Part shown: in pieces, positions 766-44,117 of the stretch | How positions within the stretch are numbered: the first letter of the stretch is position 1 | How the letters are laid out: each line of letters begins with the position of its first letter | NCBI GenBank assembly: GCA_951406725.2 | Contig: OX597820.1 | Coordinates: forward strand, 113,336,001 to 113,400,000 | Length of the DNA: 64,000 nucleotides | Source: Octopus vulgaris | Taxonomy: Eukaryota | Direction of reading: 5' to 3' | Position numbers and translations under genes: made by a program | The notes under the pieces: generated by a model | The model's input: only the letters and a program-made list of their open reading frames with translations | What the model was told of the DNA's origin: nothing | The model's database searches: none

Positions 766-1854
766 ATATGCATGTTCATACATGCATTTAGATTCACATA
801 AAAAGAGCGCATATATTTGTATGTTAATATATATAGACAGATACGCAAAGACAAAGCACAAAAGCATTCACACGCACAAGGATAACGATAAAAGCACTTC
901 GACGCATGCGCTGTTAGCTTTCTCTACAAGACTGCGATCTGCAGGGGGGGAGTAAATAATGTTCATTGAAGCCAGAGTAACGCAACAAATGACGCATATG
1001 AAGCTGGTGTTCTTTAGAATAGCAGTTAATTACTATTATGGTTACTCAGAATTGTTATTCGATACAATAGTTTCAATGTCCTTTCTTCTTCGTGGAAGGG
1101 TAGGTGGGGATAAAATAATGTACCAAAGCGATCTTTTCACTAAATTTGAGACCTTGGGGCTTTACAAGAAGTAGACCATTCTTTTAGAAAGTTCATCTTA
1201 GACAAATACAATACAAAGATATAAATATGCGTGTGTGTGTGTGTGTGTGTCTAGCTACTTATATATATAGGCGCAGGAGTGGGTGTGTGGTAAGTAGCTT
1301 GGTAACCTCTGAACTGTTCGGACGTGTTATTTTGCTGCTCCGGTTGCCACGTTGTTTCAACGTGAATTGTTGAACTTTCGACTCGACTGCAGGTAGGAAT
1401 TTTGTATTTTTGCGAGCGAAGTGAAGCTTTATTACTTGCATTAATGTATTTTAGCATTAAATATTTTTTAGCAGATAATAAGGCTCCATTTTGCTCCGGA
1501 TATAATTTTTCTGCCTGTTGTCGGGTGTGAAGAAAATTGTGTTTTTGAGGCGGCGTAGTCCGTCTACAAAAATTATTTTTGAAATTATCGTTGTGTTATC
1601 TACGGATTTACCAAGGATCATTTACCAAGGTGTCGTACCAACCATATACTTGGCCTGGAGTACAATTTTTGGCCTAAAAAGTGAAAAAATTCCTTTGTCT
1701 GAATTTGAACTCTCTTTCTCTGCCTATCATTCATTTGTAAAAAACTTTCTTTGAACTGCCATTTTAATTTTATTTCTTCCCTTCTGTTGCTTTTTTCATT
1801 CTCCTTTCTGTGTCTAATTTATTTTGTAACATTTTGAACTGTTTTTCTTAAGTT

Positions 1855-3063
1855 ATGGCAAGGAATTTTACAGTGTGGGAATTAACACCTCCCAAAAAAT
1901 ATTTGAACGAACTTAAGGAAAAGACAGTTGTGCTGAGGACATATTCGAAGTCTCTCGACACCATAATGGTCTTTCCGAAAGACACAATTATGAACGAGCT
2001 GGCAGACTATATGCCAGCCGTTAAACACATTCAACGGGGAGCCAAATACGCAACGATTTGGTTGCTGTTTGACTCTCCTAAAGCAGCTTGCGATTTCGCA
2101 AGTAAGCCCATTGAGGGCGACGAGATTCTGTTTCTCCCAAGCTATAAGGGGGAAAAATTGCTACGTTTATGGGTCTGCGGCCTGCCGCCCGGCTTTGAGC
2201 CCGAGTGGGTGGAAGATTCCATCCGCCGGGGTCTGAGTGGTGGTAGCGCCAAGATCCTGAACGTAAGAATGCAGCCTGCGGCTAACTGGGAAGGAGGAAA
2301 AGCTACTTTAACTCTGTGGACCCAGTCGGCCAAGAGTCTGGTTTTGCCGGACTTCCTAAAGATGGCCGGTTCCAAGTATCCGGTGATGCTAGAGGGACGC
2401 GCCCCCAAGTGTCACCTGTGCTCGGAGACCGGCCATATTAAGAAGAGCTGCCCCAGGAACCAGAGTAGGATCCTGGAGAAGTTAATATTAGAGCCTCTCC
2501 CTGCCTCACCAATGGAGGGAGAGAAACAAAGCGAGGAGGGGGAAAAACCCTCCGCCAAAAGAAAAAGAAGAGTGGGAAGCAATGGCGACTCACAAAAGGA
2601 CCCGAAAGCTCCGGGAGAGGAGAACCTGGTGCGCACAGCTCCGGAACCTCAGCCTCCCGTGGCCCAGGGCCAAAAGAAAAGAAAAAAGAAGAGAAACGGA
2701 GCCCCGCCGGCGGATTGCTACACGCAGACGGCGGTTCCCGAGTATCCCGGATCCTCTCAGGCGGGTGTGCTGCCTGAGGGACTATTTGTAGAAAATTTTG
2801 TGCTCCTCTTTTTCAAGGGAAAAAAGGTGGAAGACGCCGTAAGAAAAGTGCGAAAGAGAGGACATTGGGAGGTAATCCGGTCTTGTGTGGAAGGCCCCGA
2901 GTGGCCTTCGCAGTTAGCTGCGGGGGTCGTGGGAAGGGCTGATCTACACAGGATCGTGAGTTCCTGCCCGGCGGACTCTTTCCAGACTGTACCACTGGAC
3001 TCCGGCCTGACCAGCGAGTATTGCCTCAATGAGGCAAGAGCATTGGTCGGCCGGGTCACTTAG
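1855..3063 (+). CDS. 402-aa LINE ORF1/Gag-like nucleic-acid-binding protein (Tx1/L1-type ORF1-like)
   Basis: Intact GC-rich ORF. CX2CX4HX4C knuckle CHLCSETGHIKKSC preceded by EGRAPK and a WVCGLPP motif; basic NLS-like runs (KRKRR, KKRKKKR); colinear paralog at 4051-5268. Confidence 0.85.
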   Translation: MARNFTVWELTPPKKYLNELKEKTVVLRTYSKSLDTIMVFPKDTIMNELADYMPAVKHIQRGAKYATIWLLFDSPKAACDFASKPIEGDEILFLPSYKGEKLLRLWVCGLPPGFEPEWVEDSIRRGLSGGSAKILNVRMQPAANWEGGKATLTLWTQSAKSLVLPDFLKMAGSKYPVMLEGRAPKCHLCSETGHIKKSCPRNQSRILEKLILEPLPASPMEGEKQSEEGEKPSAKRKRRVGSNGDSQKDPKAPGEENLVRTAPEPQPPVAQGQKKRKKKRNGAPPADCYTQTAVPEYPGSSQAGVLPEGLFVENFVLLFFKGKKVEDAVRKVRKRGHWEVIRSCVEGPEWPSQLAAGVVGRADLHRIVSSCPADSFQTVPLDSGLTSEYCLNEARALVGRVT

Positions 3064-3199
3064 GCAATGTAACATCCCTGTAACATATGGAAGAGGAGGT
3101 TCATTGCCTCCTCTAAAACATGTAATGTGAACATTTTGTAATTTTTGGAAATTGTTTGAATTTTTTGAAATTTTTGAACTCTGTAAAACTATTGAAAAA

Positions 3200-3334
3200 A
3201 AAGAACATTGTTTTAGAGAAGCAAAAGTCGGCGGGCGCTTTCTGACTTCTCCCATCACCATCGTCATCCACCACCACCATCATCCATTAATGTCCTTGTC
3301 CAGCCCGCAGCTACTCTGTGCTGCCCTAGTGGCA
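3200..3334 (+). other. Conserved 3' RNA structure (stem-loop, pseudoknot, terminal hairpin) of copy A
   Basis: GAGAAG(3216-21)/CTTCTC(3246-51) stem; loop GCGGGC(3231-36) complementary to GCCCGC(3303-08); TGCC-N5-GGCA hairpin. The same motif recurs at 5404-5550. Confidence 0.65.
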
Positions 3335-4050
3335 AATTATATAAAATAAAGTAGCTTGGTAACCAGACATGCGCAGTTAGTCGGTTGCTTCTTGTTGAGC
3401 TAGAGTGGACGTGAGTCCAACTAAAGAAAAAAGACCAAAAACGGAAAGTTGTCGAGGTAAGTGATTTTGTTTATTGTGAGTTGGGCATAATTTATTGCGT
3501 GCCAATTATTATTTCAGTAGGTTGTGTCCAACTCTGAGACAATTTCGCCTGCGCTAGGCGGCTGCCGTTTTTGTGTTCATTGAAAAAAAAAAAAAAAAGA
3601 AAAAACAGTGGAGGGGCGTATACTCAGGATTCAATACAGTTACTGTTAAAATTACCGTTGGCAGTAACCAGTGCTGTGTTTGAGTTTGCTGAATTTATTC
3701 CCTTGTCAGAGTACTTCGCAAGAAAAGTATAAAAATAAGCCACTATTGGATTACCTTTCGGACCCATTTTTGTGGAGGTTGTGTTGCAGTTGCGGCGTTC
3801 CAGGTTCAACCCAAGCCGGGAGTACCGCAGAATATTTTTGCTGTGTTTTTTCTGTTTATTAACTTTCTTTTGAACTTCATTTACCCCCCCCCCCCTTTTG
3901 TTTTTTCTTTATTGCGACTTTCCGTTAATTTCTTCCCTTCTGTTGTGCTTTCTCCTATTTGTTTTTTCAAAAATCTATCAAATTTATTTAGACTTTGGAA
4001 CTTTTTTCTTCCTGCTTTTGAGTCTAATTTGAATATATTTTTTAAAAAAC

Positions 4051-5268
4051 ATGGCAATGAAAAATAACAAAGTTTTGGAGTGGGAAATCATACCACCCAA
4101 AAAGTGGTTGAAGGACCGTGAAGATAGGACGGTGGTGTTGAGAACCTACTCCAAGGCACTTGACACCATCGCCCTATTCGAAAAGACGGCAATTGAGGAG
4201 GAGTTGGAGGAGTATTTGCCAACAATTAAATTCATTTCCAGGGGTGTCAAATATGGAACGGTGTGGTTGCTGTTTGACACCCCTGAAGAGGCTTGCAAAT
4301 TTGCTAGCGAACCCTTGGAGGGTAAGGAAATCTTATTCCTGCCCACTTACAAAAAAAGAAATTAATGAAAGCTTGGATCTGCGGACTGCCACCCGACATA
4401 GAACCCGAGTGGATAGAGGAGACTATCCGCCGGGGTCTGGGTGACAGCGAAACTAAGCTCCTCAATGTAAAAGTTCTTCCTGCGGCTGCTTGGGTTGGCT
4501 CGAAAGCAGTTTTGACCCTGTGGACCCAATCAGCCAATCTGGTTTTTCCAGATTTTTTGAAAATGGCCGGGTGCAGGTACCCGGTGATGCTTGAGGGTCG
4601 CCCCCCTAAGTGTCATCGGTGCTTGGAGTCCGGCCACATAAAGAAGAACTGTCCTCGGGAACAAAATAGGATCCCGGAACAGTTAAGTAAAACCCCTCTA
4701 GAAGAGGGAACGATAACGGCCGAGAAAGCAGAGGACTCCTCAAGCAGAGGCCGAAAGAGGAAGGTGAGCAACAATGGATGCTCACCAAAGGATAATAGGG
4801 ATGAGGAGAGGAGGGCGAATCTTCCAGCCACGGAGGAGACGCACCCTCCCTCAGTTAAAAAGGGGAAAAAAAAGAAAAACGGGACGTGTGGCACCGGAAT
4901 GTCGCGGAACTACGTCGGTTGGGGTTGTGCCACCGACAAGAGAAGGAATACCGTTGGTGGAAACTGTGCCGCCAACGAAAGAACTGAATGTATTGGTCCT
5001 CTTCTATAGAGGAGGAGAAATTGAAAAAGTGATGGAAGAGCACTACAAGGGAGCACCTTTAGCCTTCACACAGGACCCCGAATGGCCTCCGCAGGTAGCT
5101 GTGGAGGCCGTGGCGTTCGACGTGACGCTAGGGCTAAAGGAGCTCAATGAAGACTATAACTTGGTCCCGGGCGACGCGAACTCGGAACTTGACTACGTTC
5201 TGAGGGAGGCGTGGTTGATGGTGGAGGGCGCGGGCACAAGCTATTTCGAGGACGATATGTATTATTAG
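4051..5268 (+). pseudogene. ORF1-like zinc-knuckle protein (~405 aa when repaired) with two compensating frameshifts in A-runs
   Basis: ORFs 4051-4365, 4365-5009 and 4774-5268 align successively to the 402-aa protein (TVVLRTYSK, LTLWTQSA, PDFLKMAG, CHRCLESGHIKKNC, PEWP). Shifts fall at A7 (4351-4357) and the A-rich run ~4857-4879. Confidence 0.8.
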
Positions 5269-5403
5269 TATGGACTTAAGTCCAAAAATTGAAAAATTGT
5301 AAGAGGATTAATACCTCGTTTTGTATTAATAATGGACTGCTAAGCCCAAAATTGGAAAAATTGTAAGAGGTTTAATACCTCGTTTTGTGTTAATCTTTTT
5401 TAA

Positions 5404-5550
5404 AAAGAACAATGTTTTAGAGAAGCAAAAGTCGGCGGGCGCTTTCTGTCTTCTCCCATCCTTATCATCTTTCTTTCATTATCATTCACCTCATTAATGT
5501 CCTCGTCCAGCCCGCAAAGCTAACTTAATCTGTGTACTGCCTTTATGGCA
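5404..5550 (+). other. Conserved 3' RNA structure of copy B
   Basis: 57-nt block with 2 differences from 3200-3256; GCGGGC(5435-40)/GCCCGC(5510-15); TGCC-TTTAT-GGCA hairpin. Confidence 0.65.
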
Positions 5551-5731
5551 AATGTTTTGAAATAAAGTAGCTTGGTAACCAACCACATGGTTCCAGGTTC
5601 AGTCCTACTACGTGGCACTTTGGGCAAATGTCTTCTTCTATAGCCTCGGACCGACCAAAGCCTTGTGAGTGGATTTGGTAGATGGAAACCGAAAGAAGCC
5701 CGTCGTATATATGTTGTATATGTATATATAA

Positions 5732-5773
<42 letters not shown>

Positions 5774-5980
5774 TTGTGTGTCTGTGTTTGTCTCCCAACA
5801 TCGCTTGATAACCGATGTTGGTGTGTTTACGTCCCCGTAACTTAGTGGTTCGGCAAAAGAGACCGATAGAATAAGTACTAGACTTACAAAGAATAAGTCC
5901 TAGGGTCCATTTGCTCGACTAAAGGCGTTGCTCCAGCATGGCTGCAGTGAAATGACTAAAACAAGTAAACGAGCAAAAGA

Positions 5981-6023: not shown

Positions 6024-6222
6024 GGAGTAAACACATAAATGTGAAACAAGGTGGAAAAAAGAGTACTCAAATACCAGAGGTAGAGTAATATGCTTTATTT
6101 AAAAGCAGCAGAAATTCAACAAAACCTGTTACTCGGAGTTTTATTAACAAAACTGCCCGACGAACGGGAACGTGAAACTCCGAGTAACAGGTTTTGTTGA
6201 ATTTCTGCTGCTTTTAAATAAA

Positions 6223-13639: not shown

Positions 13640-18667
<5,028 letters not shown>

Positions 18668-42847: not shown

Positions 42848-43239
42848 AAATTTCCCCCAAGACAGCCGAAGCGTTGTGTTAACAACAAACAAGAGGTCAA
42901 ATATGCGTTTATGTAAATAATGTACATAATTCCTCATCTCTTAAATTTAGAACTGTATTAACAATCACAAAAATAAGAAAAATAAGAATAGCAGCAACAA
43001 AATTTGTGGGAAGGAATTAAGTCGATTACATACACACACATACACACATATATATATAGAGAGGTAGGCGTCGCTGTGTTTACTTCCCAACCGCGTAGTT
43101 CTGAGTTCAGTCCCGCTACTTGACTTTTGGGCTGTGTTTTCTACAATAGCATCGAGCCGATCAAAGAATTGTCAGTGGGTTTGATAGACGAAAACTTAAA
43201 GAAGCCCGCCGTATATATATATGTGTGTGTGTATATATA

Positions 43240-43453
43240 TACGTTAGCACGTCGGGCGAAATGCTTAGCGGTATTTCGCCTCTCTATATGTTCTGAGTTC
43301 AAATTCCGCCGAGGTCGACTTTGCCTTTCATCCTTTCGGGGTCGATAAATTAAGTACCAGTTACGCACTGGGGTCGATGTATCCGACTTAAGCCCTTTGT
43401 CTGTCCTTGTTTGTCCCTCTGTGTTTAGCTCCCTGTGGGCAATAAAGAAATAA
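43240..43453 (+). mobile_element. SINE family B
   Basis: Consensus body. Confidence 0.8.
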
Positions 43454-44117
43454 GTATATATGTGTATGCGTATGTGTGTGAGTGTGATATGCGTGTGTGT
43501 GTGTGTGTGTGCTTCTATATATGCGTGCGTGTGTGTCTGTGTCTATGTCCTCTACCGCTTGACAACTGCGGTTCGGCCAAAAGGACCAACAGAATACGTT
43601 GCAGGTTTTGAAAATATAAGTACCGGAGTCAATTTGTTGGGCTAAAATTAGTGACGGCAGTGCCCTAGTATGGCCGTACATATAACAGCTGGTTTTGTTT
43701 TGGAGAGCAGAAGAAGAGTCTCTTGAATTTCAAATGTATGGTGATAAAACTGTTTGTGTCATACATATTGTATTTGTTGCCGATGTTGTTGATGAATATT
43801 TTATTTGTTTTTTTTTCTTGTTTTTTTTTTTTTGCTGCAATTGAATTTGTTATAATTATTATAGTATTTCCTGTTGTGACTACTTCAGTGGTTATTGCTC
43901 TTTATAAATTATATCATTTTTGATATTTGATAGCGATCGTGTGTGTGTGCATGTGTGCGTGCGTGCGTGTGTGTGTATGTATTTATATGTATGTGTGGTG
44001 TGTGTGTGTGTGTGTATGTGTGTGTGTGCGTGCGTGTGTGTGTATGTATTTATGTGCATTATCCTTATCATCATCCAGGGGAGTGGATTTGTAGAATCGT
44101 TAGAACATTCAACAATA

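Follow-up and report, generated by a model that had tools for sequence, protein, structure and literature searches.

What are two protein-coding retroelements doing one behind the other at exactly the same nucleotide of a short interspersed nuclear element (SINE) of Octopus vulgaris, and which enzyme put both of them there? The locus occupies positions 1269-5980 of the stretch of DNA analyzed here, 64,000 nucleotides (nt) of contig OX597820.1 (assembly GCA_951406725.2, positions 113,336,001 to 113,400,000, forward strand), which we call the window. A preliminary description had proposed that the two units carry only the first open reading frame (ORF1) of a long interspersed nuclear element (LINE) and depend on an endonuclease supplied in trans. 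Our results make it highly probable that the units are non-autonomous, ORF1-only derivatives of L1/Tx1-type elements at one SINE position, likely inserted in succession by the enzymes of an autonomous element designated family C.

A 16-mer is present exactly at 1292-1307, 3349-3364 and 5565-5580 (all features of the locus lie on the forward strand), where the preliminary description had placed it, and its copies bound a first unit of 2041 nt (1308-3348) and a second of 2200 nt (3365-5564), in keeping with the 2.0-2.2 kb claimed. Across the window this 16-mer has eight matches at three or fewer mismatches, compared to 0.39 expected by chance, and the five that do not belong to the units are other copies of the same SINE, SINE A. 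The segment upstream of the first unit (1269-1307), which contains an A-box-like motif and ends in the first 16-mer, is 92-95% identical (blastn) over 39 nt to positions 1-39 of other SINE A copies in the window. The segment downstream (5565-5980), which begins with the third 16-mer (the SINE's own copy) and continues through a B-box-like motif, a microsatellite middle and a tail, aligns with these copies starting at their position 24 and is 75-82% identical to the full-length ones. One SINE A copy is thus split by the two units and has its positions 24-39 repeated; 1308-5580 is indeed the interruption first described. The insertion site lies between the A-box-like and B-box-like motifs of a tRNA-type SINE head; ARAGORN found no tRNA within the 64-kb window. 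The SINE may carry a CORE-like motif.

Unit 1 consists of a 5' untranslated region (UTR; 1308-1854), an unbroken ORF of 402 amino acids (aa; 1855-3063) and a 3' UTR (3064-3348). The ORF of unit 2 (4051-5268) is spread over three frames (4051-4365, 4365-5009 and 4774-5268), whose translations are 62%, 54% and 30% identical to the unit 1 protein; compared to three relatives it is one base short in an A-run near 4358 and lacks ~26 bases near 4874-4888. It is followed by a 3' UTR (5269-5564) that holds an internal tandem repeat of ~64 nt. One protein of ~400 aa per unit, as originally reported, is thus found in unit 1 but not in unit 2. Identity between the units is 71% across 618 nt of the ORF and 78% across the final ~160 nt, with 5' UTRs that are little alike, whereas each has a much closer relative elsewhere, on contig C23 for unit 1 (96.9% identity) and on contig C5 for unit 2 (98.2%). 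In agreement with the preliminary description, this contrast indicates two insertions of diverged homologs rather than a recent tandem duplication, and the units represent two young subfamilies of one old lineage, termed H1.

Both units end in a GCC-n5-GGC..AATA tail, joined straight to the target without poly(A). The AATAAA that had been described as fused to the target repeat is indeed contiguous with it, but consists of the element's terminal AATA and the first AA of the repeat. A structured 3' UTR was not recovered: the last ~80 nt of the two tails, the portion that was folded, fold no better than shuffled sequences (z -1.42 and -0.20) and have in common a small terminal hairpin motif only. 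Rfam gave no match at gathering level and no ribozyme match to E 5. Nor do the units resemble long terminal repeat (LTR) retrotransposons or endogenous retroviruses, since they have no terminal repeats besides the target 16-mer and Pfam recognizes one CCHC knuckle only. An intron in the 5' UTR, suggested by GT donors near 1392 and 3457 and a pyrimidine tract before the ATG, found no support: contigs run unspliced across the putative acceptor, and no such joint is present among the 15 of 58 joints shown. Runs that are presumed to hold RNA reach 27-29 of the 30 bins, which is evidence neither for nor against expression.

The unit 1 protein is predicted to comprise two RNA-recognition motif (RRM) domains (residues ~14-99 and ~100-180), a CCHC knuckle (185-200), a disordered basic linker and a C-terminal alpha/beta domain (~310-401). 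An AlphaFold model made from a 30-row alignment (mean pLDDT 70, pTM 0.38) matches tandem RRMs (Foldseek E ~1e-5) and single RRMs (Z 8.4-8.6, rmsd 2.4-2.7, 76-82 residues aligned), and ZCCHC3 RNA-binding domains are among its structural look-alikes in Atlas (score 0.90). The knuckle itself scores E 0.009 in Pfam, under the curated cut-off; zf-CCHC was recognized in 25 of 30 ORF1s and Transposase_22 in none of the 30. The alignment of the unit 1 protein with an autonomous ORF1 (27% identity over 199 aa, E 2e-28) shows that the unit ORF is homologous to ORF1 of L1/Tx1-type elements, the kinship that had been put forward. An RRM with a CCHC knuckle characterizes the Type I ORF1 protein (ORF1p), which the available text of PMC5203782 associates with Tx1; here both parts are seen in the model matches and the zf-CCHC counts. 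The C-terminal domain, predicted alone (pLDDT 82), has no Foldseek match at E 0.001 (best Z 4.4, with 75 residues aligned at rmsd 3.4), no Atlas match and no profile match among the autonomous ORF1s, although the lack of a structural match for a predicted model does not show a new fold.

The H1 ORF is under purifying selection. In a sample of 14 copies, all with unbroken ORFs, the ratio of nonsynonymous to synonymous substitution rates (dN/dS) has a median of 0.18 (0.11-0.26) over residues 8-200 (88 of 91 pairs); the linker (0.38) and the C-terminal domain (0.49) have higher values. The copies are also mosaic, the window copy and that of locus L002 differing by a dS of 0.81 in the N-terminal part and 0.13 in the C-terminal part. 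In a 43-row ORF1 tree (midpoint root, with a caveat for long branches), the ORF1-only proteins and the Octopus sinensis protein P0001 lie on one side of a branch with 100/100 support and a stem of 1.64, apart from all autonomous ORF1s. P0001 alone among 150 library matches is closer to the ORF1-only proteins than to the autonomous ORF1s. An O. sinensis gene model is homologous to the unit ORF, and named homologs come from Octopus and Argonauta.

To judge how faithfully this lineage uses its target, we examined its copies across the genome. A search with the unit 1 protein, in which 103 of 13,310 candidates were scored, yielded at least 106 matches, many of them unbroken; the ORFs are therefore not single-copy host genes, which would have refuted the preliminary description. 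Seventy loci selected by ORF were inspected, namely the best 30 and another 40 hand-picked from lower ranks (~48-87% identity), and 69 have at least one junction on the SINE site (62 at the 5' side, 60 at the 3' side). ORF2 does not follow the ORF at any of the 70; two ORF2-like matches (L208, L212) lie elsewhere in the flank. When loci were selected by the last 151 nt alone (the best 30 of 40 listed, which overlap the ORF-selected set and include the window's own copy), the target AAGTAGCT directly followed the tail in 30 of 30, continuing into the rest of the SINE in 19 and into another element in 11. The flanks of other copies are thus far from random, as had been anticipated. Genome-wide, the combined tail and target pattern occurs 1,382 times, compared to 5 for a reversed-pattern control, while one exact form of the empty SINE site has at least 82,683 copies. 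Together with the target-site duplications (TSDs), the multicopy state and the LINE-type 3' tail familiar from HAL1-like elements, these observations establish H1 as a multicopy family of ORF1-only L1/Tx1-type derivatives, strict for one SINE site, whose ORFs are transposon products and not octopus-specific genes.

The enzyme that had been postulated in trans has a good candidate in family C, full elements of which were found inside H1 arrays; the endonuclease searches scored the best 140-150 of ~9,000 candidates. Family C combines an ORF1 with a 1133-aa ORF2 containing an apurinic/apyrimidinic-type endonuclease (APE), a reverse transcriptase (RT) and zf-RVT (Pfam PF03372, PF00078 and PF13966). 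The best solved relative of this ORF2 is human L1 ORF2p (E 8e-66, versus 8e-22 for R2), and its N-terminal APE, its RT and its C-terminal zinc-binding region place it in the L1 group. The label 'Tx1 clade' rests on architecture and behavior, not on a tree. Family C has at least 151 genome matches, most of them at 80% or more; among 20 copies hand-picked down the match list, 17 are on target at the 3' junction and 16 at the 5' junction, and others lie inside H1 arrays at L088, L090 and L091. Its tail is the GCC-n5-GGC..AATA tail of H1 and of a second ORF1-only lineage (H2, below), and the tails align, whereas other families and SINE B end in a different one, GCCCC-TTGT-GGG AATAAAGAAAT. The first 37 nt of one family C copy and one H1 copy are identical at 36 positions (97%). 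With tail, target and head in common, family C is likely the autonomous partner of H1.

Our first candidate for this role, family A, came from an array on contig C7 and was rejected as the main partner: its other copies lie elsewhere, and its array copy is a chimera in which an H1 5' UTR precedes a family A body (L061:1-4114 with L081:8442-10000, minus strand), with an H1-type 16-mer on both sides, within an array of at least nine units. Among 39 copies of family A and related autonomous families whose junctions were inspected (all of 40 retrieved loci but L107), we found no on-target junction. Families A, D, E and F are 49-54% identical to family C in the endonuclease and 66-71% in the RT, a comparison that covers these four and leaves out a SINE-B-targeting family. 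Two family A copies (L101, L103) share a non-SINE target, GTGTGTTTCTTAAATGGC, and a full element is nested in an H1 ORF at L062:1430-6850. At L062:8497-9997 (minus strand), an ORF1-only-looking unit with a family-A-type tail lies just upstream of a SINE. Near-identical full elements with unbroken 1132-aa frames also run in series with a period of ~5.2-5.3 kb (C30:10432056-10448717, C27:32960199-32971613 and C22:14226158-14242644); these are recently active families in tandem.

The H1 site has other users. H2 is a second ORF1-only lineage of ~1.47 kb with a ~304-aa ORF, on an unrelated branch of the 43-row tree (examples: L081:2371-3827, minus strand; L079; L228-L244). A search for it gave 134 matches, distant relatives included; at 20 loci, 12 copies were on target, two more had a SINE head upstream, and no ORF2 match was present within the fetched 2.2 kb. 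The other Tx1-tail pattern is joined to the target 389 times, compared to 0 for a control. All 30 of the loci inspected for this pattern are SINE B, continuing into SINE A in 26, and a family-A-type tail was otherwise found on target in the chimera only. SINE B (for example at window positions 43230-43480) is itself a target: a sister autonomous family occupies a fixed SINE B site at five of five loci (L114-L118), with repeats of 12-16 nt and 47 exact junctions. SINE B carries a Tx1-type tail, and runs of it in tandem are seen at about the site used by this sister family (L135, L148). Finally, a young autonomous family was found at one motif (ACATGGAGGAAAG-like) in ORF1 of related elements, also in tandem, at six loci (L120, L128, L129 and L131-L133). 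Elsewhere in the window, arrays of AT dinucleotides hundreds of bases long lie at 14029-17365, and an inverted repeat of ~84 nt lies downstream of the interrupted SINE, beside AT microsatellites, at 6116-6199.

The junctions bear on how the insertions were made. Across 39 solo insertions, mismatches between the two flanking 16-mers affect 0-1 loci at each of positions 1-8, and 4-16 loci at each of positions 9-16. Three variants, TTTCTCACC, TTCTTACC and TCGCTAAC, account for 9, 8 and 6 of 98 occupied 5' junctions (23 in total), compared to 0 of 48 empty sites, and such recurrent variants go with particular element heads. In two H2 copies (L240, L244), a complete repeat precedes an additional AGCTTGCTTCCG, 12 bases of the older SINE variant. 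At truncated copies and at SINE B insertions, the repeats measure ~8-16 nt. TSDs of 16-17 bp had been predicted, and 16-bp repeats do flank the copies, but the second half of the 5' repeat appears at many loci to be borne by the element rather than duplicated from the target. This points to an RNA leader derived from the target, as in some R2 elements. At the window locus itself, the three 16-mers share a G variant that none of the 48 empty sites has; in this case, then, it was the local DNA that was copied, and this happened twice. The hairpin between leader and head has a z of -2.07 in unit 1.

Tandem neighbors occur at 15 of 70 loci, some of which belong to one array, while occupancy of the SINE site is ~1.6%, as estimated from two lower-bound counts; arrays are therefore over-represented. 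Their excess may reflect preferential insertion at occupied sites, RNAs that read through, template jumping or unequal crossing-over. The largest arrays contain at least nine mixed units. In the C5 and C1 arrays, the units are 98-99.6% alike, a locus-specific variant is present at every inner junction and the 3'-most copy is the SINE's own, a pattern that fits growth at the 5' side. Elements of the unit 2 type are 3'-most in all four complete arrays that contain them (the window, C5, C1 and C2).

The following sequence of events would account for the locus. The ORF2p of family C would bind the common tail and make a bottom-strand nick at the boundary of SINE positions 23 and 24, from which it would prime reverse transcription, with the top strand cut up to ~16 nt downstream. 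The RNA would start with a short target-derived leader, whose cDNA could anneal to the upstream DNA end. Such annealing would give uniform 5' junctions, the second half of the repeat being either local sequence, as in the window, or that of the leader. The 5' junction would remain a target, so that arrays would extend mostly on the 5' side of units already present; in the window, unit 2 would have come first and unit 1 second. The ORF1p that an element encodes probably covers that element's RNA and gives it an advantage in the competition for ORF2p.

Several observations weigh against this explanation, of which some concern the junctions and others the partnership. Only 10 of the 39 solo insertions have identical 16-mers, and pairing between leader and head over 78 junctions is barely higher than in shuffled sequences (10.2 versus 8.7 pairs). 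Units in some arrays are near-identical (99-99.6%), which DNA-level duplication or template jumping could explain. The mechanism is deduced from genomic sequence. Three older copies of the 20 examined for family C, and 6 of the 20 loci from the H2 search, have no junction in the fetched DNA. The ORF1 of H1 is only ~25% identical to that of family C and is not its sister, so the pairing of the two rests on tail, head and target. Lastly, one family A chimera and SINE B copies, all with the other tail, sit on the H1 site, and therefore the tail is not its sole determinant.

These points leave some room, though not much, for an autonomous family outside our sample, present or extinct, as the main mobilizer of H1, with family C merely sharing the site; we consider this unlikely. 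The isolated, long-stemmed position of H1 ORF1 in the tree would fit such a history, as would the fraction of endonuclease candidates scored and the observation that older H1 copies (48-60% identity) lie in the AAGAAGCTTGCTTCCC SINE variant, whereas younger H1 copies and the sampled family C lie in AAGTAGC variants. Yet no other autonomous family in the sample has both this tail and this target, and family C also has the 37-nt head in common with an H1 subfamily and occurs in the same arrays.

A tRNA gene, or its motif, ancestral to the SINE head is very unlikely to be the target that is really conserved, with SINEs hit as its mimics. The position of the site between A-box-like and B-box-like motifs would be expected on that account, and Tx1-clade elements are reported at small-RNA genes in the available texts of PMC4494074 and PMC8869645. 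However, every terminal 3' junction inspected runs into SINE-specific sequence (the search did not extend to the genome's tRNA genes), target variants track SINE variants, and the exact empty SINE sites number in the tens of thousands.

We regard as highly improbable an origin of the window pair by tandem duplication or gene conversion of one insertion at the DNA level, and likewise the idea that the ORF1-only units are inactive family C copies with internal deletions. The rare G in all three 16-mers and the 99% identical units of some arrays speak for such events, but the window units differ far more from each other than from their relatives on other contigs, and the H1 ORF is under selection and is not derived from family C ORF1. 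The chance that the ORFs form a host gene family (a domesticated, ZCCHC3-like ORF1) that happens to lie in SINEs is close to negligible, since purifying selection, the ZCCHC3 look-alikes and the O. sinensis gene model are set against more than 100 dispersed copies, many of which are broken and all of which have the same target repeat at their ends, and against 5'-truncated copies on the site. A lone copy conserved in synteny might nonetheless have been domesticated.

Insertion of H1 by family C may be one part of a larger arrangement, which we advance tentatively and hold to be rather doubtful as a whole: a guild of L1/Tx1 elements that uses the heads of the two commonest octopus SINEs as landing sites, combines an R2-like leader, the template for precise joining, with an APE, supports at least two independent ORF1-only parasites on one enzyme (one of them using its C-terminal domain, whose fold is not recognized, for capture), prefers occupied sites, where it builds mixed arrays of at least nine units, and includes sister enzymes, with ~50% identical endonucleases, that have switched targets. 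If this is true, the sister enzymes form a natural series for the study of target specificity. A single genome here offers a passenger, its likely enzyme and empty sites in the tens of thousands, which brings three questions within reach of experiment: for what reason ORF1p is retained by ORF1-only elements; whether 5' junctions of APE-type elements form by leader annealing or by true duplication; and which endonuclease residues set the target, be it SINE A, SINE B, the ORF1 of another element or little preference at all. Site-specific retrotransposons are also of interest for gene insertion.

The system joins ORF1-only LINE parasites with target-specific Tx1 elements. It differs from known ORF1-only LINEs in its RRM-RRM-CCHC ORF1 with an extra C-terminal domain and in its SINE-specific insertion. 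HAL1 is not known to have a target of this kind; HeT-A extends the ends of chromosomes. Such non-autonomous LINEs include HAL1 (from L1), HeT-A (Jockey) and Ag-Sponge (CR1), which, in the available text of PMC5786205, resemble the octopus units in having a 5' UTR, an ORF1 under selection and a LINE tail, with no ORF2. The SINE side has precedents as well: the tRNA-derived octopus SINEs OK, OR1 and OR2 (Ohshima and Okada 1994) are cited in the accessible parts of PMC4824008 and PMC4758252. The 2026 repeat annotation of O. vulgaris lists 80 L1-Tx1 consensus families, 13 of them recently active; in the portions of its text and supplement file available, neither a target preference nor an ORF1-only family is mentioned (PMC13282606). 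Likewise, the literature searched, as far as its texts were accessible (compare PMC9004415 and PMC3747384; Repbase, Dfam and subscription papers lay outside the search), holds no account of a SINE-specific Tx1 family or of an ORF1-only Tx1 passenger. The parts are known separately, as transposon-targeting Tx1 elements and HAL1-like elements; their combination, and a SINE head as target, were not found described.

The proposed leader has a model in R2 elements with upstream 28S sequence, whose target-derived 5' RNA bases have been proposed to anneal and give uniform 5' junctions, as we propose here (Eickbush et al. 2013, available part of PMC3774820). R2 employs a restriction-like endonuclease and a hepatitis delta virus (HDV)-like ribozyme, whereas family C has an APE, and Rfam detected no ribozyme at the octopus locus. 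Family C resembles Tx1L, Keno, Kibi and Koshi, which also combine an L1-group ORF2 of the APE type with a fixed site in multicopy sequence; the Tx1-clade targets named in the accessible text, which do not include a SINE, are Tx1D, U2 and U5 small nuclear RNA (snRNA) genes, 5S rRNA, microsatellites, satellites, and DNA and LTR transposons (PMC4494074). A close parallel to the system as a whole is Tx1-Mar with SINEU-3 in crocodilians (Kojima 2015). There, as here, a single site in another, abundant transposon serves Tx1-type elements as well as their non-autonomous passengers, with a 16-nt TSD and tandem insertions that sandwich it (PMC4494074, available text). The crocodilian target, however, is Mariner, a DNA transposon, its passenger is an snRNA-derived SINE that encodes no protein, and fidelity ranges from 13 to 90% among SINEU families in the part of that report at hand; in the octopus, the target is a tRNA-type SINE head, the main passengers encode an ORF1p, and fidelity is higher in our samples, the tail sample being on target in 30 of 30 cases.

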